Source of the DNA: Candidatus Woesebacteria bacterium RIFCSPHIGHO2_01_FULL_39_32
GTDB taxonomy: Bacteria > Patescibacteriota > Microgenomatia > UBA8517
Reading direction: 5' to 3'
DNA length: 64,000 nucleotides
NCBI GenBank assembly: GCA_001792345.1
Contig: MGGJ01000001.1
Location: 153,710-217,709 of the forward strand
Part shown: one piece after another, positions 1,480 through 56,090 of the stretch
How the letters are laid out: each line of letters opens with the position of its first letter
Numbering within the stretch: position 1 is the stretch's first letter
Position numbers and translations under genes: made by a program
Notes under the pieces: model-generated
Told to the model about the DNA's origin: nothing
Database searches by the model: none
The model's input: the letters and a program-made list of their open reading frames with translations, nothing else

Positions 1480-3027
1480 ATGAAATCGAAATACTATTTG
1501 TATCTTATTCTTCTGCTGTCACTTTTGGGGTTGGCTGATTCGTGGTATCTGACGCTGGAGCATTATGGGAAGATTATTGTTCCTTGCTCTACCGCTATTT
1601 TGGTTGATTGCGGAAAGGTTTTAAGAAGTAAATATTCGGAAGTTTTGGGGATTCCTTTGGCACTAATCGGTGTTTTTCATTATGGTCTTTTCAGTTTAGT
1701 CAATTTTTATAACGTTATTAAAAAAGATAAGCAGATTCGAGTAATTGCGATTATATTCAGCACAATTGGTACATTATCTTCTATTGTTTTTATGTATTTG
1801 CAATTTTTTGTTATTGGTTCGATCTGCCTTTACTGTACTCTTTCTGCGATCATTAGTTTTACTTTACTTTATTTAACGTATCGATTTTTCGAAGATGAAA
1901 GAAAGTTTTTGTTTATTAAGTTAACCGGGTATAAGTATCGGTATATTTTGAAAAAGATTTTGTTTCTGTTTGATGCGGAGTTTGTTCACGAAAAGACAAT
2001 TGGTTTCGGAAAATTTGTTGGTAAAAACCGATTATTAAGAAATATTTTTAGTTATTTCTACGACTACAGGAGTACTTCTTTAAAACAAAAAGTATTGGGT
2101 ATAAATTTTGAGAGCCCGATAGGTTTAGCAGCTGGATTTGATTACGATGCTAATCTGACACAATTTTTGCCATCACTTGGCTTCGGATTTATGAGCGTGG
2201 GCACGATTACGAACATGCCTTATGCGGGGAATCCCGCACCACGTTTGGGACGTTTACCAAAATCAAAATCACTTCTGGTTAATAAAGGCTTTAAAAATGA
2301 AGGTGCAGATGTTATTGCTGACAAGATTAAGAACCAGAATTTTGAAATTCCGGTAGGTATAAGTATAGGAAGAACGAATTCATCTGAACTGGACTCTCAA
2401 AAGAAAAGTATAGATGATATAATCTCAGCTTTTAAAAAATTCGAAAGTACCAAAATTAAAAATTCTTATTATGAATTAAACATAAGTTGCCCGAATTTGA
2501 TCCACCAAGGAGAAGTGGTCTTTGATGAACCGAAAAAACTTGACGAACTATTGGTTAAAGTAGATAGTTTAAAACTTAAAAAGCCTGTTTTTCTCAAAAT
2601 GCCTATCGATAAATCCGATCAGGAAACTTTAGAGCTTCTAAAAATTATTTCTACGCATTCGCCTAAAGGTGTTATATTTGGTAATCTTCAAAAGGATAAA
2701 AAACACCCGTCACTTCATTTGGATGAAGTAGCTAAATTTGAGAAGGGTTATTACAGCGGTAAGCCTACTTATCAAAGATCAAATGAATTAATAAAACTTG
2801 CATATAAAAACTTTAAAAATAGATTAGTCATAATAGGTTGCGGTGGAGTTTTTTCAGCGGAAGACGCTTACACAAAAATAAAACTGGGAGCATCTTTGGT
2901 GCAGCTTATCACAGGCCTAGTATACAATGGTCCTCAGCTGGTTGCAGAAATAAATTTTGGACTAGTAGATTTACTTAAAAAAGACGGATACAAAAATATT
3001 TCCCAAGCTATTGGAGTTGACAACTAG
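1480..3027 (+). CDS. pyrD: Fusion of an N-terminal vitamin K epoxide reductase (VKOR) membrane domain and a C-terminal class 2-like (quinone-type) dihydroorotate dehydrogenase
   Basis: VKOR: TM1 ending DSWYLT, loop cysteines VPC..VDC, V..S.YS...GIP, YLQ...IGSICLYC (CxxC). PyrD: DAEFVHE, PIGLAAGFD, GTIT, GNPAPRL.RL, NKGFKNEG, ELNISCPN, SGKP, IIGCGGV, GASLVQL.TGLVY.GP. Confidence 0.9.
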   Translation: MKSKYYLYLILLLSLLGLADSWYLTLEHYGKIIVPCSTAILVDCGKVLRSKYSEVLGIPLALIGVFHYGLFSLVNFYNVIKKDKQIRVIAIIFSTIGTLSSIVFMYLQFFVIGSICLYCTLSAIISFTLLYLTYRFFEDERKFLFIKLTGYKYRYILKKILFLFDAEFVHEKTIGFGKFVGKNRLLRNIFSYFYDYRSTSLKQKVLGINFESPIGLAAGFDYDANLTQFLPSLGFGFMSVGTITNMPYAGNPAPRLGRLPKSKSLLVNKGFKNEGADVIADKIKNQNFEIPVGISIGRTNSSELDSQKKSIDDIISAFKKFESTKIKNSYYELNISCPNLIHQGEVVFDEPKKLDELLVKVDSLKLKKPVFLKMPIDKSDQETLELLKIISTHSPKGVIFGNLQKDKKHPSLHLDEVAKFEKGYYSGKPTYQRSNELIKLAYKNFKNRLVIIGCGGVFSAEDAYTKIKLGASLVQLITGLVYNGPQLVAEINFGLVDLLKKDGYKNISQAIGVDN

Positions 3028-3048: not shown

Positions 3049-3513
3049 ATGGACAACAAAGACAAAGAGAAATTAGAGAAATTCTTAAACGCAAATAATT
3101 TAATGACACTTGCTACAGCAAACCCTAAACCTTGGGTTGCGACGGTTTATTATGCTTTCGATAAAGGTTTTAACCTCTACTTTGTCAGCTCACCCAATTC
3201 CAAACACTCCCACGATATTGAAAAAAATAAAAACGTAGCGATTGCTATTTATGACTCACACACAAAAAACTCCGAAAGTAAAACAGGGTTACAATTACAG
3301 GGAGTAGCATCTCGAATTAAAGGTTGGGATATGACCACTAAGATGCTCAAGATCTGGCACAAATCAGCTCCAGGAATGGAAGATATAGTTAATATTAAGA
3401 ATATGAAAGCTAAAGTTATAAGTTCCAGAGTTTACAAAATTACACCTACAATAATTAAGTTTTTTAATCAGGATCTTTACGGCGAAGAAGGGTACAGGGT
3501 ATTTAAGTTATGA
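3049..3513 (+). CDS. Pyridoxamine 5'-phosphate oxidase-like FMN-binding split-barrel protein
   Basis: MTLATA..KPWVATVYY....LYFVS...S.H...I..N..VA..I; GLQLQG. Confidence 0.8.
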   Translation: MDNKDKEKLEKFLNANNLMTLATANPKPWVATVYYAFDKGFNLYFVSSPNSKHSHDIEKNKNVAIAIYDSHTKNSESKTGLQLQGVASRIKGWDMTTKMLKIWHKSAPGMEDIVNIKNMKAKVISSRVYKITPTIIKFFNQDLYGEEGYRVFKL

Positions 3514-4247
3514 ATTTAAAAGAGAAAGTTGTTGTTATTACGGGTGCGACGGGGGGAATTGGAAGCGAACTTTCGAAGGCATTCTCCCAAAAAGGCGCAC
3601 GCCTAGTCCTTATCTCGAGGAACGAGGACAAATTAAAAGACCTTATTACAAAACTTGATGGGAGCAGGCATGAGTATATCATCTACGATTTCCGTAATCA
3701 GGATAATTTCGAGGAACTGATAAAAGAACTTCGCGATAAAGCTGACAACATTGACGTTTTGATAAATAACGCAGGAATTGGAGTTTACAAATCTTTAGAG
3801 GAAGCAGAAGAAAAAGATTGGGCAGACTCGATTAATATAAATGCAACTTTCCCCTTTCTTCTAACAAAAAAACTTCTGCCAATTTTACAAAAATCAGAAA
3901 AAGGGATCGTCCTAAATGTTGGCTCGGGTATGGGTAAAATTCCTTCGGCGGGAAGAAGTGTCTACTGCGCTTCAAAGTTTGCACTAAGAGGGTTATCATT
4001 GTCGTTGTCAAAGGAATATAAAGGAACAAATATCCACTTTGTTTTAGTAACTTTAGGAAGCACTCTAACAGACTTTGGACCAATGACCCTAAAAGAAAAG
4101 CAGGAAGAAAGTCTAAAAGGTAAAGCCTATTTTACCCCCGAATGGGTGGCCAAGAAATTTGTAGAATTAATTGAAAAAGATGAGTTTGAAGATGAGATAG
4201 AGTTGTATCCATCCGAATACACCGGAAAAGAATGGCGCGCATCATGA
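3510..4247 (+). CDS. Short-chain dehydrogenase/reductase (SDR)
   Basis: TGATGGIG, NNAG, YCASK catalytic motif. Confidence 0.9.
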   Translation: MNLKEKVVVITGATGGIGSELSKAFSQKGARLVLISRNEDKLKDLITKLDGSRHEYIIYDFRNQDNFEELIKELRDKADNIDVLINNAGIGVYKSLEEAEEKDWADSININATFPFLLTKKLLPILQKSEKGIVLNVGSGMGKIPSAGRSVYCASKFALRGLSLSLSKEYKGTNIHFVLVTLGSTLTDFGPMTLKEKQEESLKGKAYFTPEWVAKKFVELIEKDEFEDEIELYPSEYTGKEWRAS

Positions 4248-4819
4248 AGTTAATTGATTTAATAAAAACACGACGAAGTATACGTAAATGGAAAATTGAT
4301 CCTATTTCATCAGAAATTATCAAAGACTTAGTCGCAGCGGGAAAAAGTGCACCATCTTCGCACGGGTCTAATCCTGTAGAACTAATTGTTGTTGATGATA
4401 TTCAACTTACTGAACAACTCCTGTCTGACAGACTTCAACTTAAAAAACCACCTCACTATATAAATTCTAGAAAGTGGGCTAAAAAAGGAGGTTTAGAGAA
4501 TTACGAGAAGGTTTCTCCTCCGCCTCTACTTGTTGTTGTTTGTGGAGATCAAAATAAATGTGAAGATTTGTCAAGCCTTCTAATAGACATGTCGGTATCA
4601 ACTGAAAATATACTCCTTACGGCTCACGGTTTAGGTTTGGGAGGTTGTTGGCTTTATGTTTATGATGAAAGCATGCCCGAAACTGAGGAGAATGTTAAAA
4701 ACTATCTTAACATTCCAAAAAATATCAGAGTTCTGTCGCTTATTGCCTTAGGTTATCCCAATGAAAAACCCACACCAGATAATAAAGATGTAAAATCTTT
4801 CCATCAAAATAAATGGTAA
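4244..4819 (+). CDS. Nitroreductase family protein
   Basis: IKTRRSIRKW, APSSHG, ENILLTAHGLGLGGCW, LGYP; ATG at 4244 overlaps the SDR stop (ATGA). Confidence 0.85.
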   Translation: MKLIDLIKTRRSIRKWKIDPISSEIIKDLVAAGKSAPSSHGSNPVELIVVDDIQLTEQLLSDRLQLKKPPHYINSRKWAKKGGLENYEKVSPPPLLVVVCGDQNKCEDLSSLLIDMSVSTENILLTAHGLGLGGCWLYVYDESMPETEENVKNYLNIPKNIRVLSLIALGYPNEKPTPDNKDVKSFHQNKW

Positions 4820-12396: not shown

Positions 12397-13192
12397 AGAA
12401 AAACTTGTATCGGTTATCATCCCGGCCTACAAAGCCGAGAAGACTATTGAAAAAAGCTTAATTAAAACAAAGAAAGTTTTAGATGCTATACGTTATAACT
12501 ACGAAATAATTTGTATCGATGACGGGAATACCGACAAAACCCGAGTCAATGCTGAAAAAGTCGCAAAAAAATTTCCCGATAAAATTAAAATTGTTGGATA
12601 CCTTACCAATTTAGGTAAAGGACACGCTGTTCGATTCGGAATGGCTCAGGCGGAGGGCGATATAATTGGTTTTATTGATGCTGGTCTTGACGTTGATCCA
12701 AATGGAATATCCATGTTACTTGAACATTTTGAGTGGTATGGTGCAGACATAATTATTGGCTCTAAAAGACATCCCGCCTCAAAATTAGAATATTCCTGGC
12801 AAAGAAAAATTGTATCAATTGGATATCAGATATTGGTAAGAACCCTTTTTGGAGTTAAAGTGAGAGACACGCAGGTTGGTCTGAAATTCTTCAAGAGAGA
12901 AGTTTTAGAGAAGGTTCTTCCCAGAATTCTGGTTAAAGAGTTTGCTTTCGATATTGAAATTCTATCAGTTGCGTACTACCTTGGCTTTAAAAGGATTTTT
13001 GAGGCACCAGTTGAGTTGAAAATGGAATTTGGGGGCTCCACAATTATCAGTAAAGGATTTATTAGAACAGTTTTTAAAACGCTTTGGGATACAGTGGCAG
13101 TTTATTACAGACTTAGAATTCTTCACTATTATGATGATAAAAACAATAAAAATTGGATAACTCCCGATTATCTTACTCTCAAAAGTAAATGA
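12365..13192 (+). CDS. GT2, polyprenyl-phosphate glycosyl synthase-like (Alg5/DPM1)
   Basis: VIIPAYK, IDDG..D.T, NLGKG.AV..G, FIDA, GS.RH, DTQVGLK.F, FAFD.EIL. Confidence 0.85.
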   Translation: MKRKTQAAENREKLVSVIIPAYKAEKTIEKSLIKTKKVLDAIRYNYEIICIDDGNTDKTRVNAEKVAKKFPDKIKIVGYLTNLGKGHAVRFGMAQAEGDIIGFIDAGLDVDPNGISMLLEHFEWYGADIIIGSKRHPASKLEYSWQRKIVSIGYQILVRTLFGVKVRDTQVGLKFFKREVLEKVLPRILVKEFAFDIEILSVAYYLGFKRIFEAPVELKMEFGGSTIISKGFIRTVFKTLWDTVAVYYRLRILHYYDDKNNKNWITPDYLTLKSK

Positions 13193-15213
13193 AACAGTTT
13201 TCCATCCTCAGTTTCTTGATTTTCTTCATTTTATTATTTCCTGAAAAATGTTTTGCAGATGAGGATAATCAATTCATCACAATTGTAAATCCGGTTAGAA
13301 TATCACGTTACACTACTAATTCTTCTGAGAGTATTCTCTCTCAATATTCGGTGATAAAAGAATTAGATTTAGCAGCTACCTGGTTACTTACATATGATGT
13401 TTTAATTAATAATGGATCTGTTACGGCAATTAAGGATTTTGATGAAAATCAGGAAATCGGTCTTTTCCTGGAAATTTCTTCTGAATTTGCTGAGGAATCT
13501 GAGGTTATTTATAACGATACAGGGAGTTGGCACTATGCTCCTTCAGTTTTTCTCTCCGGGTACAAACAGGAAGAAAGGGTAAAACTAGTTGATACTCTTT
13601 TTGAGAAGTTTAAAGAAACATTTGGGCATTATCCAACCTCGGTCGGAGGGTGGTGGATCGATTCGTTCTCATTGGAATACATGAAGCAAAAATATGGAAT
13701 AACTGCAAATTTAGGACTTTCCGATCAGTTTTCAACAGACGGATATCAAGTTTGGGGAACATTTTGGTCAACCCCCTTTTATCCATCTAACTATCATGCA
13801 GGAATTCCTGCTGTTGAAGAATCAGTCAAACTTGATGTCGTGACTTTACAATGGGCGCCTCGGGATCCTTTAAATGGTTACTTCAATAGTTATTACAGCA
13901 CTCAAGATTATCTCCAAAATCCTGTGAATCAAGACACGTCGTACTTTGAAAAGTTAGTTCGCCTGTATGCCAAAAAGAATGAGAATGCATTTGGACAGAT
14001 TGTTGTCGGGCTAGAATCAGATTTATCTCCTGAGGCTTATAAAGGAGAATTTGCAAAACAGATGGAAGTTGTTAAGAGATTAGGAAATTCGGATGATCTA
14101 CAAGTTTTGACAATGAGTGAATTTAGTAATTGGTATAGGCTTACATTTCCTAATCTATCACCCACTCAAGTTGTGGAGACAGATGATCTTCTGGGAAAGC
14201 CTATAAAAGTAATTTGGTATCAAACGCCTAAGTTACGTATAGGATTAACTTATAACTACGAAACTTTCGAAACAAAAATCTTCGATTTCCGCGGTTATCA
14301 TTCAAATTTTCAAGAATCATATTATGTAACTCCGAACAAAGAGCGGGAACTTTCTATCTACATCCCTTCCTACTTTGATGAAATAAATAATACAGATGAT
14401 GTTTGGAGTATAAGTTTAGGAAAACTTACGGAAAGCAAAAGAAATGACCAAGAACTGAATATGGTTTTTACTAAGGGTGAAATAATTTTTGGTCGAGATA
14501 AATTCCTAATTAAAGGGTCAAATGAAGTGCCTAATATTTTGGCTAAAAATCCAAATCTCATGGTCCGTAAAAAATTAACCGGTATTGAAATTTCTCCTAA
14601 AGACGCTTGGGTTATTGATCGTAACGGATATGTTTTCAAAGATTTAACGGATATTGCTACAAGAGAACTGATGCGGAAAAGAACCCTCGGGTTGGTTTTG
14701 GTTTTTACGAGCCTTTTTCTTAGTTTGGGTTTTGGTGTAATTCTTTCAAAGATTTCTCAAAGAAAAAAACTCCTAGTCTTAAGCTTCATGATAATTCCAC
14801 CTACTTTATTTATCAACAATTGGTACCAGAAAAACACTATGAATTATTATGTAAGTCAGGCAGAAATTGACGCGCTTTTAAATCTTTCTACAAAACCACC
14901 AGGCAAAGTTCTTGTGTACGGAAGGGAATGTTTAGGTTGCGAATGGGCTACACCTCAAAAGCCAGCCGTTTTCTCGAACAAAAGAAGTTATGTTCAAAGA
15001 TGGGGAAAACACCCCATTGTTTATAATTCAAGCGTTTTTGAAGCCCAAAACCAGCAAGTCGCAAGGCGAAAATTTGATGAACTGAATGCATCTTACATTT
15101 ATATTACAAAATATGGGGATTATGTTGAAAAAGTACCTTTTTCCCCAGGAGACCTTAATATAGAAAAATTGTATGATAATGCTAACGCCGAAATCTGGAA
15201 GGTAAAAGAATGA
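13189..15213 (+). CDS. Exported, membrane-anchored protein with an N-terminal glycoside hydrolase/deacetylase-like barrel
   Basis: Signal peptide; TWLLTYD, EIGLFLE, F...FGHYP...GGW..D; two TM near the C-terminus followed by a soluble domain. Confidence 0.5.
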   Translation: MKQFSILSFLIFFILLFPEKCFADEDNQFITIVNPVRISRYTTNSSESILSQYSVIKELDLAATWLLTYDVLINNGSVTAIKDFDENQEIGLFLEISSEFAEESEVIYNDTGSWHYAPSVFLSGYKQEERVKLVDTLFEKFKETFGHYPTSVGGWWIDSFSLEYMKQKYGITANLGLSDQFSTDGYQVWGTFWSTPFYPSNYHAGIPAVEESVKLDVVTLQWAPRDPLNGYFNSYYSTQDYLQNPVNQDTSYFEKLVRLYAKKNENAFGQIVVGLESDLSPEAYKGEFAKQMEVVKRLGNSDDLQVLTMSEFSNWYRLTFPNLSPTQVVETDDLLGKPIKVIWYQTPKLRIGLTYNYETFETKIFDFRGYHSNFQESYYVTPNKERELSIYIPSYFDEINNTDDVWSISLGKLTESKRNDQELNMVFTKGEIIFGRDKFLIKGSNEVPNILAKNPNLMVRKKLTGIEISPKDAWVIDRNGYVFKDLTDIATRELMRKRTLGLVLVFTSLFLSLGFGVILSKISQRKKLLVLSFMIIPPTLFINNWYQKNTMNYYVSQAEIDALLNLSTKPPGKVLVYGRECLGCEWATPQKPAVFSNKRSYVQRWGKHPIVYNSSVFEAQNQQVARRKFDELNASYIYITKYGDYVEKVPFSPGDLNIEKLYDNANAEIWKVKE

Positions 15214-41051: not shown

Positions 41052-42303
41052 TATAAAACAAATCCGTATCTTTGCTCTAGCTGCTTATGGAAAAGGACTT
41101 TCTGGGGGAGATAGGATTTTTATTGAATTTGCCAGACGTTGGAGTAAAAATTTTCCTGTGGAAATTTATGTTTGGAAAGAAGGAGCCAAAATGTTGGAAA
41201 GACAACATCTGGGTATTTTCAATTCACAATTTTCACTTTTTAATGCAAATAAAGATTACCGAAATTTAAAAGTTCACGTTTCGAAATTAAAAAACCTATG
41301 TAAATTAGGATTCTTATTTTGCTACCTTACCAGAATTATTGAAGGAATTCGTTTAGGACTTTCTTTAAAACTAATCACCAATCACCAATCACCAATTACT
41401 ATATACTCTGCATCAGAATTTTGGATGGATTCACTCCCCGCTTTCATATTAAAACTCAGATATCCGAAGATAACTTGGGCCGCATCGTGGTATCAAACTG
41501 CTCCCAACCCATTTCATGGATATTTAGAAAATGGACAACGTAGAAATAAATATTTTTTTAGCAGTCTCTTCTATTGGCTAATGCAACTACCGATAAAGCC
41601 GCTTATTTCAAGCTTTGCTGACTATGTTTTAGTAAATAACGAGGAAGAACGAAAGCAATTTTCCGATTTGAACAAAAAGGGTAGAATGATAGTGGTTTTG
41701 GGCGCGGTTCCACTTGAAGAAATTAATAAATTTTTAATTACTAATTCCAAACTATTAACTACTAAAGAATATGACGCTGTCTTTCAAGGACGCTTACACG
41801 CGCAAAAGGGAGTGGTTGAATTAATCGACATTTGGAAAAAAGTGGTTGAGATAAAACCGTTAGCAAAATTGGCGATGATTGGAGATGGTCCCTTGATGGG
41901 AAAGGTAAAGAAACGAATAACTATGAATAAACTAACTAATAACATTAAAGTTTTTGGGTATGTTTTCGACGGGCCCAAAAAATATAAAATATTTTCCAAA
42001 AGTAAGATTGTCGTGCATCCCGCATTTTATGATTCAGGTGGAATGGCATCTGCAGAAGCAATGGCTTTTGGATTACCATGCGTCGGCTTTAACTTAAAAG
42101 CGTATAAATCTTATTATCCTCAGGGTATGGTTAAGGTAGATATTGGAAACACAAATGCTTTTGCAAAAAAAATAATGGAATTATTAGAAAATTATTCTTT
42201 GCGTATAAAAATAGGTAGAGAAGCTAAGTACATGATAGAAGAAAACTGGTCGTGGGAAAAAAGAGCTAACGAAGTTTTGGAACGAATAACTACAAATAAA
42301 TGA
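41044..42303 (+). CDS. GT4 glycosyltransferase with in-frame heptamer-repeat inserts
   Basis: SGGD, GRL..QKG, D..G...AEAMA.GLP. Confidence 0.85.
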   Translation: MFDIKQIRIFALAAYGKGLSGGDRIFIEFARRWSKNFPVEIYVWKEGAKMLERQHLGIFNSQFSLFNANKDYRNLKVHVSKLKNLCKLGFLFCYLTRIIEGIRLGLSLKLITNHQSPITIYSASEFWMDSLPAFILKLRYPKITWAASWYQTAPNPFHGYLENGQRRNKYFFSSLFYWLMQLPIKPLISSFADYVLVNNEEERKQFSDLNKKGRMIVVLGAVPLEEINKFLITNSKLLTTKEYDAVFQGRLHAQKGVVELIDIWKKVVEIKPLAKLAMIGDGPLMGKVKKRITMNKLTNNIKVFGYVFDGPKKYKIFSKSKIVVHPAFYDSGGMASAEAMAFGLPCVGFNLKAYKSYYPQGMVKVDIGNTNAFAKKIMELLENYSLRIKIGREAKYMIEENWSWEKRANEVLERITTNK

Positions 42304-43250
42304 GACGAATAAAACATTTTGTATCTATTACTGATTTAACTAAAAAAGAAATTAATCTTGTCCTTCAAATTTCCTCAAGTCTCAAAAGACAATTAAAGAA
42401 AAAAGGGAGCAACAAAGATTATTTAAAAAATAAAGTATTGGGAATGATTTTTGAAAAACCATCTCTGCGTACAAGAGTTTCATTTGAGGCAGGAATGACT
42501 CAAATGGGAGGACATGCAATTTATCTTGCGCCCGGGGATATTGATTTGGGTAAAAGAGAGCCTGTGAAAGATGTTTCTCAGGTTTTATCAAGGATGGTTG
42601 ATATTATTATGGCTCGAACTTTTCTTCATACTACCATAGAAGAGCTAGCTAAGTATTCAAGTGTTCCTGTTATTAATGCTTTGTCGGAACAAGAGCATCC
42701 TTGTCAGATTTTAGCTGATTTATTAACTATAAAAGAAAAGAAAGGAAAATTAAAAGGTATTAAGTTAGCATTTGTTGGTGATGGCGAAAATAATGTAACT
42801 CATTCTTTAGCTTTAGCCTCAGCAATTTTTGGAATGGATTTTCGGGTAGCAACACCTCCTGGTTTTGAAATGCAAAGCATCATTTTAGAAAAGGCAAAAG
42901 CAATTGCAAGTAAGAGCGGTGGACTAATTATAGAGACAGATAAACCCGAAGAAGCTGTAAAAGGAGTCGACATTGTCTACACAGATACATGGGTTTCTAT
43001 GGGTGATGAGTCTGAGAAAGACAAGCGTATAAAAGCTTTTAAAGGATATCAAGTAAACACTAGATTGATGAATTTTGCAAAAAAGGATGCAATATTTATG
43101 CATGATATGCCTGCCTATAGGGGTTATGAGGTTAGTGAAGAAGTTATTGAAGGAAAGCAATCTATAATAATCAATCAAGCAGAGAATAGACTACATGTTC
43201 AGAAGGGTTTGATTTGTTTTCTCCTACGTACTACCATCAATACATCATGA
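42300..43250 (+). CDS. argF: Ornithine carbamoyltransferase
   Basis: FEKPSLRTRVSFE, HPCQILADL.T, GDG.NN, YTDTWVSMG, H.MPA.RG.EV, QAENR.H.QK. Confidence 0.9.
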   Translation: MRRIKHFVSITDLTKKEINLVLQISSSLKRQLKKKGSNKDYLKNKVLGMIFEKPSLRTRVSFEAGMTQMGGHAIYLAPGDIDLGKREPVKDVSQVLSRMVDIIMARTFLHTTIEELAKYSSVPVINALSEQEHPCQILADLLTIKEKKGKLKGIKLAFVGDGENNVTHSLALASAIFGMDFRVATPPGFEMQSIILEKAKAIASKSGGLIIETDKPEEAVKGVDIVYTDTWVSMGDESEKDKRIKAFKGYQVNTRLMNFAKKDAIFMHDMPAYRGYEVSEEVIEGKQSIIINQAENRLHVQKGLICFLLRTTINTS

Positions 43251-48527: not shown

Positions 48528-49220
48528 ATGTATATGTTGAAATCAAAAAAATCATCACCTGGCACAAATTTTAATCATTACCTATTTACTCTGAAATTAT
48601 GGCTAGACTCACGCGTTGAACCAATATGTAGAGTTATCGATAAATCGGCCGAAAGTATTTTAGACGTAGGTTGTGGTCAAGGTTATCCGATGAGGCTCAT
48701 CAGATTAGTAATGGAACCGAAGAAAGTTGTAGGAGTTGACCTTTTTAACGAATATATTGAAGAAGCAAAATCCGCGCATTTACATGATAAGTATGTCATA
48801 TCAGATATTCGGAAGTTGAAATTTCCAAAAAAAAGTTTCGATGTCGTTCTTGCATCGCAAGTTATTGAACACTTGCCTAAAAAGGATGCAAGAAAATTTA
48901 TTAAAGATTTAGAGCGGATTGCAAAAAAGCAAGTAATTATTGCAACACCAATAGGGGAGATGTATCATCCTGCGGTAGATGATAATGAATTGCAACTTCA
49001 TTTATCAAATTACTATCCTGAATATTTTGAAAAGTTAGGATACAGGATTCTAAAATATGGTAGAAAATCTTTATTGGGGGACCACGGATTAGTTCATAAA
49101 ATTCCTAATGGGATATTGAGAAAATGCCTTTTTCTTTTCAATATTCTTATAAGTCCTTTCTATTATGTCTTCCAACCGATTGCGGATTATTATTTTGTGG
49201 CCTACAAGACGTTTAAATAA
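48528..49220 (+). CDS. Class I SAM-dependent methyltransferase
   Basis: ILDVGCGQG, SFDVV..SQVIEH, ATP.G; paralog of the MTase domain in 43247..44866. Confidence 0.9.
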   Translation: MYMLKSKKSSPGTNFNHYLFTLKLWLDSRVEPICRVIDKSAESILDVGCGQGYPMRLIRLVMEPKKVVGVDLFNEYIEEAKSAHLHDKYVISDIRKLKFPKKSFDVVLASQVIEHLPKKDARKFIKDLERIAKKQVIIATPIGEMYHPAVDDNELQLHLSNYYPEYFEKLGYRILKYGRKSLLGDHGLVHKIPNGILRKCLFLFNILISPFYYVFQPIADYYFVAYKTFK

Positions 49221-49251
49221 ATTATTTTACCCATTTAGTAAATTCAAATAT

Positions 49252-52200
49252 ATGAATAAAAAAATATTTATTTTACTTTTACTGTCCTCAGTATTGTTGA
49301 CTACAATTTTGTTTAAAGACAAGACCATATTAGGCGGAGGGGAATCGGGAGTTCCGTTTTATAACATCACAAGGATGTTTAAAGATAGTTCCAGTTCGTG
49401 GCTGGATGGACTTCTTGGAAGTTACATACCTCAATCTGTTGCCAATTATCCATACTTAAAAATTTTCAGCTTCCTCGAGGTACAAGGTATTAATGGGTAT
49501 GTTTTGCAAGCACTATTTACATTTATTGCACTTTTAATATCTCTCGTCTTTTTCTTCCTTCTTACAAAAGAAGTATTTTCAAATTATCCAAATAGCGCTT
49601 ATTTATTTTCATCCTTCTTCTATTTATTCAATTTCTACAGTGCAATGAATATTTGGAATAGATTCTTACTGAATTTTCTTCTTTTCTATTCGGTCCTACC
49701 TATGTTTTTGTGGCTTTACATGAGGTTTTTAAGGAGCAGGAACTTTGTATATTTAGGTTTATTCTTGATGCTTTCATTTATTTTTTCTTACGCCTTTTCG
49801 TCTCCTGGTCACATTATGATTTTCTGGTTTTTATTGTTATTCATTAGCTTATTTGAGTTGATGAAAGACAAAAAAAAGGTAGCTCAGGTTAAAAATTTTG
49901 TTATTACTTTAATGTTATGGCTTTTGGTTAATTTTTGGTGGATTTTACAGCAAGCCGCATATGCTATTTCGGAATCATTTAAGTCAATAAGTACGGAGTA
50001 TTTTTCTGACGTAGGAAATACTATTGGCTTCAGTTTTTTAAGTAATGTCTTGGGTAAATTTGAGAATCTATATCTTTTGAAACATGGTTTATTTTATAAC
50101 CAAGAATATGACTTTATTCTTAAATGGCCGCTTATTTACAAAAAACCACTGCTTTTGATCGTTGAGTGGATGGCGAGTCTTTATATACTTTACTGGGCTA
50201 TTAACAACAGAAAGAGATTGTCCGTCGTATTTAGTTTGGGCCTGTTACTTATTGGCTTCATACTGGCGAAAGGGAATTCCCCGCCTCTGGGAGAAGTATT
50301 TGACTTTTTTTTCCAGCGCTTTTCATTTGTACAGTTTTTTCGAAATCCATTTGAAAAATTGGGGATAATTCCGACGATGGGTTTCTCCCTGATGATTGGA
50401 CCATCGTTGTCCGATTTGGCCAAAAAGTTAAGCCGTCAAAAACCATTTTTGAGGGTTTTTATTCCACTAGTTTCGTTTACATATATAGTTGTTATTTTGG
50501 GTTTTCCTTTTTGGAGCGGCCTAGTATTTACTGGAAGCCAAGCGCCACTTAATGATCCTGAAGTAGGGCTGCGGGTGGAGGTACCATCTTATTATAAGGA
50601 TGCAGACAATTGGCTGTCTCTAGAGGACAAGGATACAAGATTTATGACATTTCCATTAGGTGGCGAAGGTATCCAATATCTTTGGCCAAAGGGTTATTTG
50701 GGAGTTGAGGAATCGGCGATTCTTTTCGAGAATGCTAATATTTCAAGTGTTTTGGCCTTTCCGTATTACGATAAAATTGCGTCAAATCTTCAAAAACTAT
50801 TTACAAAAAACATAGATTTTTACAAAATTGCCTCACTTCTAAATGCAAGATATTTACTTTTCAGGCCGGACATAGAATTTAAAAATTCAGGCATGAAAGA
50901 CCCCGCATATATAGATAATTTGTTCGAAGAAAGAGTCAGTAACGAAAAAGCAAATATTTCTTTTGCATCGCAGTTTGGTCCGCTAAAGTTTTATAAGTTA
51001 GATAATAAAGTTACTTTACCGAAGATTTATGCTGCTAATAATTACGTTAATGGAGGTTCTGGCGCCGACATTGAACAGTTTTTGCTCTCGGGCGCTGAAG
51101 TTGGGGATGTTATGTACAATTCCGGGTGGCCCGTGAGAAATAAACTCGATGCTAATACGTCTTTTTATGTTTCAAAGAATAAAGCCATATTTTATCTTCC
51201 AGGACCTCAATACCCGCTATTTGTTGATGCGCCTTACATTTTTCCTTATGTTTCACACTTACCAAGCTCACCGATATATTCGTTGTTGATCATTAAAGAA
51301 AATCTTCAAAGAAATTTATATTCAGATAAAGAAAGTAAGCTTAGATGGGATTTATTGACTTTAGGGAAACGACTAATTGAGGTCAGAAACGCTCTTTCGG
51401 CCGGAGACGAGAAAGGTGCTATTAAATCCCTACAAATTTACAGAAAAAATTTAGCTAGTGTTGTTTCCGACATAGATCTGGTTTCGAAATCGTTAAAAAA
51501 ACCCGGAGAGCAGGTTTGGAACGAAAAAATGCTTACAGAAATTTTTAGCAGTCATCTTTTTCTTTTTAACGATTTTGAAAAAAGTACATTAAATAGCGAT
51601 GGCAGTATTACGGACCTGAAAAAACAACTCTTATTATCCGTTTCCAAATTGAAAATATTACCATATTACTATCCAATAGTTAGCGAAGATTTTCCTTTAG
51701 AGAGCAGAGTAGTCTATGGAGTAGAAATAGACTCCTCGGGGGAATATGACGTAATTTTCCCAAAATCAATATTCTTTCCTGAATACTTTGGTATTAATCA
51801 ACGTATTAATATACAGATCGACGACGTAGTATATTCAACGCAAATAGGAATAGATAATAATAAGGTGTATTTTGGTAAATATTATTTATCGGAGGGCTAT
51901 CATGAAATTTCTTTCAACCAGTTTTCGAAAATAAATTTAATCGACGAAAATTTAACTAGCTTTGAATTAAATTCTATCCATGGCGAAGACTCTATAAATA
52001 TCCCAATAAAAACTTACGATGCATATTCTCAATACGAAATATCATTTGACTACCTCATTCATTACGGGAATGGCCCAGTCCTACAGGTGAGTTTAAATAA
52101 CGATAAGATTATCAAGAAAGATGGAGTTGAGACAGAACAGTATTATTTTGAAAAGTATCTTCCCCCTGATGATTATTATTTTATAAAAAGACCTTATTCG

Positions 52201-52788
52201 ACTGTTGTTAATCCAGACCCGTCATCCGACACGATGACACTAATATTTAGCGCAATCCCTTGGAATAATTGTACAAAGATTTTTTACAAAAACCCAAAGA
52301 AATGTAGCGATGTTTCGATAAGTAAGACCTATGAAAGACCAACAAAGGTGGAAATTACAAATCTGCAAATCCACCCCAGATTTTCAAGAGAACTTTTTGT
52401 ACTAAGAGTCGATGCGGTAGATGAAAAAGTATCACCAAAAATTTCTTTTACTAAAAAGAGTCACACTCATTATAAAGTGGAGGTTCGTGATTCGGAGAAG
52501 CCCTTTGTTTTGGTCTTTTCTGAATTATTTGACAAGGGATGGAAACTTTACCTAAATGGCGATAGTAAGCGGTATCCCGAGAATAACCATTTTTTGGCCA
52601 ATAGTTATGCAAACGGTTGGTTAATAGAAAATGAGGGAGACTTTAATTTGGAACTTAAATTTGTGCCCGATAAATTTAAAGAAATGGGATTGTATTTATC
52701 CTTTTTCGTACTTGGGCTGATTTTTCTTATTACGCTGTTATTGTCCGTTAATGTTTTTTTGTCTAAAAGATTTAATAAAGGATTATGA
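49252..52788 (+). CDS. Large GT-C protein (AftD-like) with an inserted DUF5667-like helical domain and beta-rich extracellular domains
   Basis: Paralog of 38880 (GGE.G.PFYN, NFWWI, KG..PP, FRNP.EK, VP.YY..A..WL, YANGW); start moved to ATG 49252. Confidence 0.7.
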   Translation: MNKKIFILLLLSSVLLTTILFKDKTILGGGESGVPFYNITRMFKDSSSSWLDGLLGSYIPQSVANYPYLKIFSFLEVQGINGYVLQALFTFIALLISLVFFFLLTKEVFSNYPNSAYLFSSFFYLFNFYSAMNIWNRFLLNFLLFYSVLPMFLWLYMRFLRSRNFVYLGLFLMLSFIFSYAFSSPGHIMIFWFLLLFISLFELMKDKKKVAQVKNFVITLMLWLLVNFWWILQQAAYAISESFKSISTEYFSDVGNTIGFSFLSNVLGKFENLYLLKHGLFYNQEYDFILKWPLIYKKPLLLIVEWMASLYILYWAINNRKRLSVVFSLGLLLIGFILAKGNSPPLGEVFDFFFQRFSFVQFFRNPFEKLGIIPTMGFSLMIGPSLSDLAKKLSRQKPFLRVFIPLVSFTYIVVILGFPFWSGLVFTGSQAPLNDPEVGLRVEVPSYYKDADNWLSLEDKDTRFMTFPLGGEGIQYLWPKGYLGVEESAILFENANISSVLAFPYYDKIASNLQKLFTKNIDFYKIASLLNARYLLFRPDIEFKNSGMKDPAYIDNLFEERVSNEKANISFASQFGPLKFYKLDNKVTLPKIYAANNYVNGGSGADIEQFLLSGAEVGDVMYNSGWPVRNKLDANTSFYVSKNKAIFYLPGPQYPLFVDAPYIFPYVSHLPSSPIYSLLIIKENLQRNLYSDKESKLRWDLLTLGKRLIEVRNALSAGDEKGAIKSLQIYRKNLASVVSDIDLVSKSLKKPGEQVWNEKMLTEIFSSHLFLFNDFEKSTLNSDGSITDLKKQLLLSVSKLKILPYYYPIVSEDFPLESRVVYGVEIDSSGEYDVIFPKSIFFPEYFGINQRINIQIDDVVYSTQIGIDNNKVYFGKYYLSEGYHEISFNQFSKINLIDENLTSFELNSIHGEDSINIPIKTYDAYSQYEISFDYLIHYGNGPVLQVSLNNDKIIKKDGVETEQYYFEKYLPPDDYYFIKRPYSTVVNPDPSSDTMTLIFSAIPWNNCTKIFYKNPKKCSDVSISKTYERPTKVEITNLQIHPRFSRELFVLRVDAVDEKVSPKISFTKKSHTHYKVEVRDSEKPFVLVFSELFDKGWKLYLNGDSKRYPENNHFLANSYANGWLIENEGDFNLELKFVPDKFKEMGLYLSFFVLGLIFLITLLLSVNVFLSKRFNKGL

Positions 52789-53132: not shown

Positions 53133-53289
53133 TAGTACCTCCTTTTTTCTTACGTTTTTATTATCACTGATCTTATCACTTGTATCTTTTCTAACGTATC
53201 ATCCCAGAATGAGCGAGTGGATGCTTAATACTAGCTTCACGTTTATCGTTATTGGAACGTTATTCTACTTTCGGGATCTCAAAAAATGA
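53119..53289 (+). CDS. Very small 2-TM membrane protein
   Basis: 56 aa from ATG 53119; fills the gap and overlaps the next ATG (ATGA). Confidence 0.5.
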   Translation: MKLINSTSFFLTFLLSLILSLVSFLTYHPRMSEWMLNTSFTFIVIGTLFYFRDLKK

Positions 53290-56090
53290 AAATTCACAGA
53301 ACCGGCCTTTTTTTAATATTAATCATTATTTATAGTAGACTTTTTTCAACCTTTGCTAACGTAGCGAATGATCTTCACTTCGCGTTTTTAGAAAATTTGA
53401 AGGAACAGCTAACTTTACCGATGTCTTGGAGTGCGAGAGGCGCAGTCGGTCTTGGCGAATATGCAGTGTTTGTTCTTTGGAACTGGCCATTAAATTATTT
53501 ATTCGGAGTATTAGGTGGCTTAGGTTTACCCTATACACTTCTGATCAAATGTTTAGGTTTTGGGTTATTTATAATCGTTGCAGTTTGGTCAATTTCGAGA
53601 ATATTAGAATATTTAAATATTTCTGAGTTCGGGAGACTTATTGGCATCCTGTTTTATCTGTCAAATAGTTATATCTTACTTCTTTTGGATGGAGGACAGT
53701 TAAATCTTGCTTTAGCCTACTCGCTTTTACCTCTGACATTTCTTTTATATAAAAAGGGAGAGGAGACAAAATCTTTGAAGGGATCAATATTATTTGCTAT
53801 TTCAACGATTGTTCTTTCAATTTTTGACATTAGAATACTTTATTTGTTAGCACTTTTAATTTTTCTTAATTTTTTGGTTACATTGTTTCTTAAACCAAAT
53901 TCAATTAAAGACATAATAGGTTCTAATTTGAAAATGGCGTTATTGTCGGGAGCAATATTTGTTGGATTCCATGCATATTGGATCATACCTTCTTTATTTG
54001 CAAGAGCTCCAAGTTTGCCGACTAGTTATGGGAGGGTATTTCAAGTAGATTTATTAAGTTTTGCATCATTGGGACATTCTTTGACTCTTTTACAACCACA
54101 CTGGTACAGGAATGTTTTTGGGAAAATTACCGAATTAAAGCTCGAATTTATGTTGATTCCTCTGTTGGTTCTTCTCGCGCCCATATTCAGACGAAAAGAC
54201 AAAAATATAGCCTTTTGGCTTATCGTATTAGTTGTAGGTATATTCATGATAAAAGGAGCAAACCCGCCCCTACCCCAAGTCTATCCGTGGCTTTTTACTC
54301 ATATGCCGGGTCTTTCGTTTTTTCGCGACCCCACTAAGTTTTTCTTTTTGGTTGCACTTTCTTATTCTGTTTTAATAGGGATAACAGTAGACGAGGTTAG
54401 TCAAAGATTATCTATATTAAAGATAAAGAGCGGATTTCTTAAATCTTATATCCTAAATCCTAAAACATTTGTGTTTCTTCTTGCTGTCTACTTCTTACTA
54501 CTTGTCCGACCTATTTGGCTTGGCCAAATGACTGGGACTTTTTCTCCTCCAATTTATCAGAACGAATATGAAGAGATAAATTCCTTAGTCGAGAAAGACT
54601 CTTCGTTTGGCAGAGTATTTTGGATTCCGACAAAAGCACCCTTAGGATATTCTTCATTTAAACACCCATCGGTTGAAGCTTCAAGGTTAGTTGAAAAGCG
54701 ACCATTCGCAATTGGAACGGTCGGAACTTACGAAATTTTTAATTATTTACGAGAAGCACCTTTTATGGGTGAACTTTTTGATGTTGCAGGAATTCGCTAC
54801 ATTGTATATCCATACCCGGATACAAGACGTGAGGAGTTAAAACAAGACAATATTGATTATTACTATGCATTTTTGGATCAGTTATCAAATCTTCCTTGGG
54901 TTGAAAGTCGAGTTTCCGATCCGCCCGTGCCTTTATTAAAGGTTAAAGAAGCCCAGGACCATTTCTTTATTACAAACAATACCTATCTTGTTATCGGTTC
55001 GGATAAAATTTATAACGATTTAGCTAGGATTGAAGGGTTTAAGTTGTCGAATAATGCCTTGATTTTCGCTGAGGAACAACCTGCAGTAGGGAATACGTGC
55101 AAGGACCGTCCCTGCACGGTAATTTTGTATGACAAAAATGAAATCGATTACGCGGCTACCTTTATAGATAAAAGTAATTTTATTTTTCCCGCGGGTCAGT
55201 TGGAATTCAGTCCTTCGGCGAACTCAGGATCTTCGGGCTGGTGGAAAAGAGAAACACTAGATCTTTTATGGTGGCGCAATTTTTTGCAGGAAAAATATGG
55301 AATTGATAATCAGGATTTTGATTTTGGTGGCGGTTGGGCTGTCGCCGAAGGCGACAAACAATTGACGATTAACGATAAGAAATTTACAAAAGATAATAAA
55401 CTTCTTGCGAGATTAATGTTAAGTAATCGTGGAGGTAGGATGAATTTTTTTCAGGGTGACCAAGAGGTTGGAGAGATTGATACGAGAATAGAGGAACCGG
55501 AAAAAGTCGAAATTAAACTGACCGGTTACGCCGAGATTCCTGATCAAATTTTTGAGTACGACGAGTCAGAGGTCAGATGGTTTGAAATAGGCAATTTGGT
55601 GTCGGATCAACACATAACCATAAAAGCCGAAGGCGAAATTAATGTTGTTAATTCATTGGTTTCGTTACCCCAAGCCGAGTTTGACCGTCTCCGTAGTTTA
55701 GTCTACAAAGACAATATAATTCATTGGGAAAGTCTCGGAAATGATGCGAAAAACGAGTTAGTTAGAGTTGAGTCTTCGCCCCAGGTTAGCTATCAGCGAA
55801 TAAACCCTACACACTATAAAGTAAGTATCGAGAAAATTGCGTCTCCGGTTACCCTGGCGTTTTCAGAAACTTACGATCCTTTATGGGAAATTACAAATAT
55901 TGAAACCGGCCAAAAAAACACGTCATATCCACTTTACAGTTTAATCAATGGTTTTTATGTCGACAAAGACGGCGAGTATGAAATTTACTTCTCCCCCCAA
56001 AAATATGTTTATCCCGGCCTGGCTATAAGCGGAATGACGGTTTTTGGCATTATCGCATTGCTTTACTACTCCAGGAAAAGGCAACAATAA
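53286..56090 (+). CDS. Polytopic GT-C protein (AftD/YfhO-like)
   Basis: D after TM1, GQ....Y..LP, H..W..P, KGANPP, FRDP.KF, RVFW.P, RINPT.Y, FSE.YD..W, NGF, F.PQ. Confidence 0.7.
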   Translation: MKIHRTGLFLILIIIYSRLFSTFANVANDLHFAFLENLKEQLTLPMSWSARGAVGLGEYAVFVLWNWPLNYLFGVLGGLGLPYTLLIKCLGFGLFIIVAVWSISRILEYLNISEFGRLIGILFYLSNSYILLLLDGGQLNLALAYSLLPLTFLLYKKGEETKSLKGSILFAISTIVLSIFDIRILYLLALLIFLNFLVTLFLKPNSIKDIIGSNLKMALLSGAIFVGFHAYWIIPSLFARAPSLPTSYGRVFQVDLLSFASLGHSLTLLQPHWYRNVFGKITELKLEFMLIPLLVLLAPIFRRKDKNIAFWLIVLVVGIFMIKGANPPLPQVYPWLFTHMPGLSFFRDPTKFFFLVALSYSVLIGITVDEVSQRLSILKIKSGFLKSYILNPKTFVFLLAVYFLLLVRPIWLGQMTGTFSPPIYQNEYEEINSLVEKDSSFGRVFWIPTKAPLGYSSFKHPSVEASRLVEKRPFAIGTVGTYEIFNYLREAPFMGELFDVAGIRYIVYPYPDTRREELKQDNIDYYYAFLDQLSNLPWVESRVSDPPVPLLKVKEAQDHFFITNNTYLVIGSDKIYNDLARIEGFKLSNNALIFAEEQPAVGNTCKDRPCTVILYDKNEIDYAATFIDKSNFIFPAGQLEFSPSANSGSSGWWKRETLDLLWWRNFLQEKYGIDNQDFDFGGGWAVAEGDKQLTINDKKFTKDNKLLARLMLSNRGGRMNFFQGDQEVGEIDTRIEEPEKVEIKLTGYAEIPDQIFEYDESEVRWFEIGNLVSDQHITIKAEGEINVVNSLVSLPQAEFDRLRSLVYKDNIIHWESLGNDAKNELVRVESSPQVSYQRINPTHYKVSIEKIASPVTLAFSETYDPLWEITNIETGQKNTSYPLYSLINGFYVDKDGEYEIYFSPQKYVYPGLAISGMTVFGIIALLYYSRKRQQ
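55086..55115. repeat. Degenerate GTAG-type REP inserted in frame
   Basis: gtaggga-atacgtgcaaggaccg-tccctgc; GC-rich patch in an AT-rich gene. Confidence 0.45.
55210..55236. repeat. Miniature palindromic element inserted in frame (copy 2)
   Basis: gtccttcggcgaactcaggatcttcgg aligns with 10849-10876. Confidence 0.55.

Follow-up and report, generated by a model that had tools for sequence, protein, structure and literature searches.

The window analysed here is a stretch of 64,000 nucleotides from Candidatus Woesebacteria bacterium RIFCSPHIGHO2_01_FULL_39_32 (assembly GCA_001792345.1, contig MGGJ01000001.1, positions 153,710 to 217,709), and near its start lies a single open reading frame (ORF) in which a thiol oxidase of the VKOR family is joined to a flavoprotein resembling class 2 dihydroorotate dehydrogenase (DHODH), or PyrD. 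The question at stake is where the electrons of disulfide formation go in bacteria of the candidate phyla radiation (CPR) without a respiratory chain, for which the fusion provides a single expressible protein. The fusion is real, conserved and mis-annotated as PyrD, and its second half – hereafter PyrD′ – most likely gets rid of these electrons and does not serve pyrimidine synthesis. The whole frame, its first half and the linker are laid out as follows:

1480..3027, forward strand: VKOR–PyrD′ fusion ORF, 515 amino acids in a single stop-free frame.
1504..1878, forward strand: VKOR domain, residues 9–133 (helices 5–30, 60–81, 84–112 and 117–136), by PF07884, structural model and match to structure 4nv2.
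1585..1629, forward strand: outer-loop cysteine pair C36/C44 and S50.
1825..1836, forward strand: active-site CXXC motif, C116-L-Y-C119, at the start of the fourth transmembrane helix (TM4), conserved in fused domains, with Ala123 at position CXXC+4.
1891..1962, forward strand: linker helix, residues 138–161, in the AlphaFold2 model.

Pfam places PF07884 on residues 9–133 of the 515-residue product (95 bits, cut-off 27.5) and DHO_dh on residues 201–498 (180 bits), while the class 2 PyrD model TIGR01036 spans residues 156–514 (249.6 bits, cut-off 200). The PyrD half likewise exceeds the cut-off of NF003652, and the class 1 model TIGR01037 scores 83 bits, well short of its cut-off of 270, which places the fusion outside classes 1A and 1B. 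It is the sole VKOR-like and the sole DHODH-like gene found in the host genome. An AlphaFold2 model built on a 40-row alignment (mean pLDDT 91.5, pTM 0.90) is laid out as four membrane helices, the linker helix, two class 2 tunnel helices and a barrel; it superimposes on Synechococcus VKOR (4nv2; Z 17.1, rmsd 2.2, 134 aligned residues), to which the sequence itself matches with E 1e-5, and on Helicobacter pylori DHODH (6b8s; Z 46.2, rmsd 1.6, 335 aligned).

An artefact of assembly or a read-through can be dismissed: the junction is crossed, with no letter change and no gap, by contigs of all four DNA runs (none of them flagged as a possible source), and all 41 proteins retrieved with residues 1–200, the query among them, carry both VKOR and DHO_dh. 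An earlier note, made from the letters of this DNA, had described one uninterrupted 515-residue frame joining VKOR to class 2 PyrD, and both the frame and the positions given for its motifs hold: C36 (nucleotide 1585), C44 (1609), CLYC (1825–1836) and DAEFVH (1972–1989). It had also named what would speak against the fusion, namely occurrence in a single assembly, a stop at the junction or loss of the VKOR cysteines; what we find instead is 40 other protein clusters, an unchanged junction in every run and cysteines kept throughout. Its ‘full PyrD’ is right for the class 2 scaffold with its tunnel segment, but not for the pocket, which is non-canonical, with C337 at the position of Ser175 among other changes.

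Each of the 49 fused VKOR domains retains the four cysteines as well as S50, so that, as far as sequence goes, a degenerate VKOR kept as a mere anchor is ruled out. Ala is common among the CXXC+4 residues of VKOR, whose chemistry requires quinone, and VKOR and DsbB are both DsbA oxidases that do the same job without shared sequence identity (PMC11208910). With characterised bacterial VKORs – the Synechococcus VKOR–thioredoxin (4nv2/3kp9) and the Mycobacterium tuberculosis and Actinomyces enzymes that work with DsbA/MdbA – the fusion has in common the four-helix fold, the loop cysteine pair, the Ser, the CXXC at the start of TM4 and the DsbA-like partners. It differs in that its C-terminal partner is a cytoplasmic flavoenzyme rather than an outer thioredoxin domain, and in a host that shows no quinone synthesis or oxidase. 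Another long VKOR was seen at L229:874-1908, where a frame of 344 residues has about 200 C-terminal residues without a Pfam match; similar VKOR frames of 335–362 residues occur in several genomes.

Judging by the helix layout of the model and by loop charges, the cysteine loop would lie outside and the CXXC at the outward-facing end of TM4, with the flavin domain inside and the PyrD tunnel at the cytoplasmic face. The distance from C119 to the tunnel histidine H170 is 51 residues in all 41 proteins retrieved with residues 1–200; in other fused clades the CXXC-to-His spacing is 43, 44, 50, 58 or 100. A single bound quinone shared by both halves, as once proposed for this protein, is therefore unlikely: with the CXXC outside and the flavin domain inside, either a mobile quinone or two bound quinones would be needed. 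In P0051 and at L163, VKOR and PyrD′ are set apart by an additional hydrophobic insert some 50 residues long.

The second half retains the class 2 scaffold around a rebuilt substrate pocket, as seen by alignment to Escherichia coli PyrD:

1972..2061, forward strand: N-terminal tunnel helices of the class 2 type, carrying E167 and H170 (E. coli H19), also in the model.
2080..2973, forward strand: barrel binding flavin mononucleotide (FMN), DHO_dh residues 201–498 by Pfam, with K373, N334, N339, N402, G427, G456 and T478 kept.
2143..2145, forward strand: Y222 replacing E. coli K66, its partner K269 replacing M113.
2251–2253, forward strand: tunnel residue R258 (E. coli R102).
2278..2286, forward strand: V267-N268-K269 replacing N111-R112-M113, with loss of the orotate binder N111.
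2479..2496, forward strand: N334-I-S-C337-P-N339, with Cys as catalytic acid/base (E. coli Ser175).
2686..2688, forward strand: L403 replacing T247, an orotate binder lost.

Further swaps put S295 in place of Asn139 and I477 in place of Tyr318. In E. coli numbering, the orotate binders N172, N177, N246, G114 and F115 and the FMN-binding K217 are kept, and N111, T247, K66 and N139 are replaced; N111 and T247 are the residues that we take to contact the ureido side of orotate. These changes are not private to the fusion. Across 270 distinct domains aligned to E. coli PyrD – gathered by likeness to the query and hence not a neutral sample – with residue roles, including those of H19 and R102 in the class 2 tunnel, taken from PMC8984913, 225 lack N111 (Val or Ile stands there in 224) and form what we call the altered group. 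Leu occupies the T247 position in 211 of these 225, compared with Thr or Ser in 44 of the 45 canonical-pocket domains, and the two binders go together, both being kept in 44 domains and both lost in 221, with only five mixed. Asn139 has become Ser in 203 altered domains, and the four commonest states of the Tyr318 position (216 domains) are aliphatic. In every altered domain, either position 66 or position 113 holds Lys, but never both (Y/K, as in the query, in 122; K/Y in 75), which suggests a compensating swap. Much else is retained in the altered group: H19 in 223, R102 in 225, N172 in 224, N177 in 225, K217 in 224 and N246 in 219. The Ser175 position holds Cys in all 225; a Cys base by itself does not mark a new function, as 26 of the 45 canonical-pocket domains also have it and Cys-type DHODHs of fungi are active.

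With the class 2 PyrDs of E. coli, H. pylori (6b8s) and M. tuberculosis (8ofw) the fusion thus shares the fold, the tunnel helices carrying His19 and Arg102, and FMN-binding K217, N172, G268 and G297, yet it has no Ser base, no full orotate/FMN set and no link to pyr genes, and is joined to VKOR. Anaerobic fungi have Cys-type class-II DHODHs (ArUra9, SjUra9 and DbUra9; PMC8520639), which combine a class 2 scaffold and a Cys base with the absence of aerobic respiration. These, likened here by scaffold and base, are however known to be genuine DHODHs. In ArUra9 the N-terminal segment is missing and free flavin is used, and no VKOR link is reported in the available portion of PMC8520639.

The two-domain architecture recurs, as the earlier note had proposed to check. 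The search with residues 1–200 covered protein lengths of 283–902 only, and the related loci bear record titles naming Roizmanbacteria, Woesebacteria, Gottesmanbacteria and Pacebacteria, with many others titled ‘uncultured Gammaproteobacteria’. Among 401 Patescibacteria genomes, eight carry the fusion and 52 an unfused altered enzyme – 60 altered carriers, as against 10 with a canonical pocket – leaving two partial matches untyped and 111 weak matches beyond those listed; one genome (G154) is counted only in these 401-genome tallies. A single clade (SH-aLRT 99) unites the altered domains and sits amid Cys-type enzymes whose pocket is normal. Within that clade, which also holds many unfused members, the fused forms are not monophyletic (approximately unbiased (AU) test, p 2e-5), and at least five events, with gain and loss of the fusion not distinguishable, are forced on a 53-row subset of the 172-row PyrD′ tree. 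The fusion is labile. The VKOR domain of the query groups with Roizmanbacteria and Gottesmanbacteria fusions and not with its relative G059, and relatives from the family of the query give only weak matches; with a transposase-like gene and a palindrome directly upstream, the host lineage possibly acquired the fusion as a unit. The altered pocket is not confined to CPR bacteria, a class 2 enzyme with the same changes being found in the alveolate Vitrella brassicaformis (P0108), and single cases were seen of altered PyrD′ fused to a PAP2 domain or a cytidylyltransferase-like domain (P0061 and P0058). A search of titles and abstract beginnings in the open-licence literature returned no publication on the fusion or the altered subfamily; both domains are of known kinds.

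Does the altered enzyme belong to pyrimidine synthesis? The host genome, 95% complete, has no match to pyrB, pyrC, pyrE or pyrF; its single carbamoyltransferase is of the ornithine type and its single clear phosphoribosyltransferase is APRT-like. Among the 60 altered carriers, pyrB is above cut-off in 17 and missing in 43, and pyrF, counted by reading of the match list, occurs in 23, compared with 141 of the 401 genomes overall. All 13 carriers with both pyrB and pyrF have a second DHODH-family gene, which in the fusion carrier G380 lies within a pyrB-carAB-pyrC-pyrD-pyrE-pyrF run (named from ORF translations and profile matches). The other four pyrB carriers have no second DHODH-family gene and no pyrF above cut-off, and in the stretches read pyrB stands there as an orphan. 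No pyrE- or pyrF-like ORF lies near any of 137 altered loci (one of them a duplicate); near canonical loci the counts are 5/9 and 4/9, which are self-matches, the queries having been derived from those loci, and two of the five pyrE-like ORFs have no Pfam match. In G397, G293, G206, G236 and G196, pyrF adjoins the canonical-pocket gene. On pocket residues, gene context and paralogues alike, a biosynthetic PyrD is rejected, and there is no support for the link to pyrimidine metabolism, or for the orotate/dihydroorotate couple, that the earlier note had envisaged: two orotate binders are lost, the host matches none of the four pyr genes that the note had thought worth checking, and carriers with pyrB and pyrF use another DHODH-family gene. 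In or near pyr operons of several genomes there is a divergent DHO_dh-family gene (55–83 Pfam bits, N-x-SCPN; L253:1123-3663, L254, L256 and L257), which in G308, read by eye, seems fused to PyrE-like and dihydroorotase-like parts.

The genomic associations point elsewhere. CPR bacteria are enriched in DsbA/MdbA-like proteins, often with VKOR alongside (PMC6744442, whose main text, as available, contains neither ‘quinone’ nor ‘dihydroorotate’), and the present host fits this picture: four DsbA-like ORFs lie elsewhere in its genome, none adjoining the fusion, together with a separate CcdA/TlpA-type fusion, and there is no DsbB. VKOR or DsbB is present in 47 of 52 genomes carrying the unfused altered enzyme, compared with 32 of 66 controls, taken as about every sixth genome among those without a class 2-like match (Fisher p 1e-6, an overstated value, as related genomes are counted as independent). 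In three of those 52 genomes the unfused gene lies within 1 kb of VKOR or DsbB, against about 0.15 expected on rough assumptions; among the best 80 loci, the same holds for 5 of 46 unfused loci, one of which (L090) is probably a split fusion. The gene orders are DsbA-VKOR-PyrD′ (L063, L082), PyrD′-VKOR (L094), DsbB-PyrD′-trxB (L107) and PyrD′-DsbB-DsbA (L118). Association of PyrD′ with two unrelated enzymes of one function, VKOR and DsbB, points to that function. The redox half of the module proposed in the earlier note is thereby strengthened, a functional link between the domains being plausible, though not the pyrimidine half. Its assumption of a host without a respiratory chain also agrees with the gene inventory, in which no heme-copper or bd oxidase, no Frd/Sdh flavoprotein and no match of NDH-2 length was found; of the partners it had asked after, DsbA is there four times over, and no quinone prenyltransferase was found. 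Most of the listed long relatives of DsbB (P0195–P0313) are DsbB–cytochrome c fusions, the named ones from Chloroflexota, which pair a thiol oxidase with a possible electron acceptor.

We propose, with a probability of about 0.45, that the fusion is a quinol-reoxidising sink for disulfide formation by DsbA and VKOR, at the end of a minimal electron chain. DsbA-like proteins would oxidise exported proteins and hand the electrons to C36/C44 of VKOR, from where they would pass to C116/C119 and, by known VKOR chemistry and with the residues intact, to quinone. The quinol would then move across to the DHODH-like domain on the cytoplasmic side, enter its tunnel and reduce the FMN there; from FMN the electrons would go to some small, soluble acceptor bound in the rebuilt pocket, C337 being the putative proton donor. 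The direction of PyrD′ would thus be the reverse of that of DHODH, and scavenged quinone would be needed only in catalytic quantity; such a closed cycle best makes sense of a quinone reducer being fused to another quinone-using enzyme. The direction from thiol through quinone and FMN to acceptor is suggested by the role of VKOR and DsbB as oxidants of DsbA, by the absence of any other quinol sink among the genes found, and by the CcdA/TlpA-type fusion, a separate exporter of reductant that spares VKOR from running backwards. Also counting in favour of the proposal are the scattering of fused forms over the PyrD′ tree and the junction spacings that vary from clade to clade. The direction has a precedent in anaerobic E. 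coli, where electrons of DsbB go via menaquinone to fumarate or nitrate reductases (PMC5638582); there, as in the yeast Erv1–Osm1–fumarate chain described in the same source, disulfide electrons pass through a flavoenzyme to a soluble acceptor. The fusion would differ in being one polypeptide with a DHODH-derived FMN barrel in place of Frd or Osm1. Its use of quinone, its direction and its acceptor are proposals; established are the fusion itself, the two folds, the pattern of residues, the lack of dependence on pyr genes and the genomic ties to VKOR, DsbB and DsbA. Orotate is an improbable acceptor. As a guess, the retained residues would suit an enone or enoate bearing a carboxylate, either one resembling fumarate or a small carboxylated quinone. 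Class 1A DHODH, which also has a Cys base, provides a pocket precedent for fumarate reduction, and the fungal dihydrouracil oxidases show DHODH look-alikes acting on another substrate (PMC10395836). Class 1A enzymes are, however, soluble and without the quinone tunnel whose helices the fusion has. The Trypanosoma cruzi enzyme keeps the binders Asn67 and Ser195, presumably the equivalents of the two residues lost in the fusion, which leaves fumarate only a candidate.

Several observations weigh against this proposal. Menaquinol lies at about −74 mV. DHODH-bound FMN, at −242 to −330 mV (PMC8520639), is so far below this that transfer from quinol to FMN would be steeply uphill unless the changes at the K66, N139 and Y318 positions raise its potential. 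With neither a quinone prenyltransferase nor a fumarate-forming lyase (Lyase_1) matched in the host genome, the cell would depend on scavenging for quinone and acceptor alike. The co-occurrence with VKOR or DsbB could come from a requirement for host quinone that the enzymes have in common, without any coupling. The 32 controls that hold VKOR or DsbB without the altered enzyme, and thus show that it is dispensable, include both tested relatives from the family of the query, and five of the 60 carriers have neither oxidase. No DsbB–PyrD′ fusion appears in the listed 120 of the 166 long relatives of DsbB, although this is weak evidence. The VKOR tree (133 columns) forces at least three changes and is compatible with a single origin of the fused VKOR domains (AU p 0.46), and the type-B fusion P0082 has no fused relative outside its own four-member cluster.

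The flavin potential suits the normal DHODH direction, and hence a reading in which the two halves work in the same direction but uncoupled: both would reduce a scavenged quinone pool reoxidised by O2 or the host, with PyrD′ oxidising some donor and VKOR as an anchor or a co-regulated, quinone-dependent neighbour. A common need for quinone would yield the co-occurrence, and the lability of the fusion, the many unfused members of the clade and the single fusions of PyrD′ to other domains fit as well. We nonetheless consider this unlikely, since the cofactor is scarce and two enzymes reducing quinone would be rivals for it, the host genome yielded no oxidase, and adjacency to two non-homologous thiol oxidases in DsbA operons exceeds the needs of anchoring. 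Electron flow from FMN to quinone would equally be downhill in a closed loop run in reverse, with PyrD′ oxidising a cytoplasmic donor and VKOR using the quinol to reduce outer thioredoxin-fold proteins for repair or isomerisation. The genomic links are the same for this loop, but oxidation of thiols is the characterised activity of both DsbB and VKOR, a CcdA/TlpA-type exporter of reductant is already encoded and the four DsbA-like proteins have the fusion as their sole candidate reoxidant, all of which makes it distinctly improbable.

Still less probable is a true DHODH or orotate reductase, in line with the earlier note, that works on scavenged dihydroorotate or orotate and tolerates its pocket changes. 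Scores above the TIGR01036 and NF003652 cut-offs, retention of N172, N177, N246, G114 and one Lys, the activity of Cys-type class-II DHODHs in anaerobic fungi (PMC8520639) and the four pyrB carriers without a second DHODH-family gene (orphan pyrB and missing pyrF notwithstanding) count in its favour; the joint loss of N111 and T/S247, the 43 carriers without pyrB, a pyrF frequency close to the overall one, the separate DHODH-family gene in all 13 pyrB and pyrF carriers – inside the pyr run in G380 – and the want of pyrE- or pyrF-like ORFs near altered loci count against it. Finally, a free flavin or other small shuttle might link the halves without quinone, perhaps helped by the neighbouring PNPOx-like protein and short-chain dehydrogenase/reductase (SDR). 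No quinone synthesis was found in the host, one Cys-type class-II DHODH uses free FMN or FAD (PMC8520639), and PNPOx-like genes lie within 1 kb at four other loci. This is nevertheless very hard to credit, as VKOR chemistry requires quinone, the tunnel His and Arg are near-invariant (223 and 225 of 225) and the free-flavin fungal enzyme lacks the N-terminal segment that the fusion has.

In its widest form, at somewhat under even odds, the sink proposal means that a large DHODH-derived subfamily would have left pyrimidine synthesis to become a quinol:acceptor oxidoreductase, closing a one- or two-protein quinone cycle with VKOR or DsbB that would make disulfide bonds in non-respiring, quinone-auxotrophic bacteria with borrowed, catalytic quinone and some acceptor. 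If a DHODH scaffold indeed oxidises quinol and works on a new substrate, this would extend the family to a new reaction. The altered subfamily occurs in about 15% of the sampled Patescibacteria genomes and is annotated as PyrD throughout; with 60 altered and 10 canonical-pocket carriers (n = 401), most calls of ‘dihydroorotate dehydrogenase (quinone)’ in these genomes would be mis-annotations that inflate the inferred capacity for pyrimidine synthesis.

Downstream of the fusion lie two further genes, followed by a nitroreductase (all three within 3049–4819 of the window):

3049–3513, forward strand: PNPOx-like split-barrel protein.
3510–4247, forward strand: SDR, after the PNPOx-like gene.

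PNPOx-like genes occur within 1 kb at L033, L039, L053 and L107, SDRs adjoin at L039, L053, L070 and L152, and both are found at the standalone VKOR locus L230; these neighbours are loosely recurrent, and their membership of the module is only putative. Elsewhere in the window, an ornithine carbamoyltransferase gene stands beside a glycosyltransferase-like ORF (42300–43250), in a host without a match to argininosuccinate lyase, and three long ORFs (49165–52788, 53286–56090 and 13189–15213; 1207, 934 and 674 amino acids) have no Pfam match at E 1e-5. Directly upstream of the fusion, on the reverse strand, lies a gene resembling REP-associated tyrosine transposases (635–1318; Y1_Tnp, with NF047646 below its cut-off), and between the two is a perfect palindrome of 11+11 nucleotides (1339–1360).

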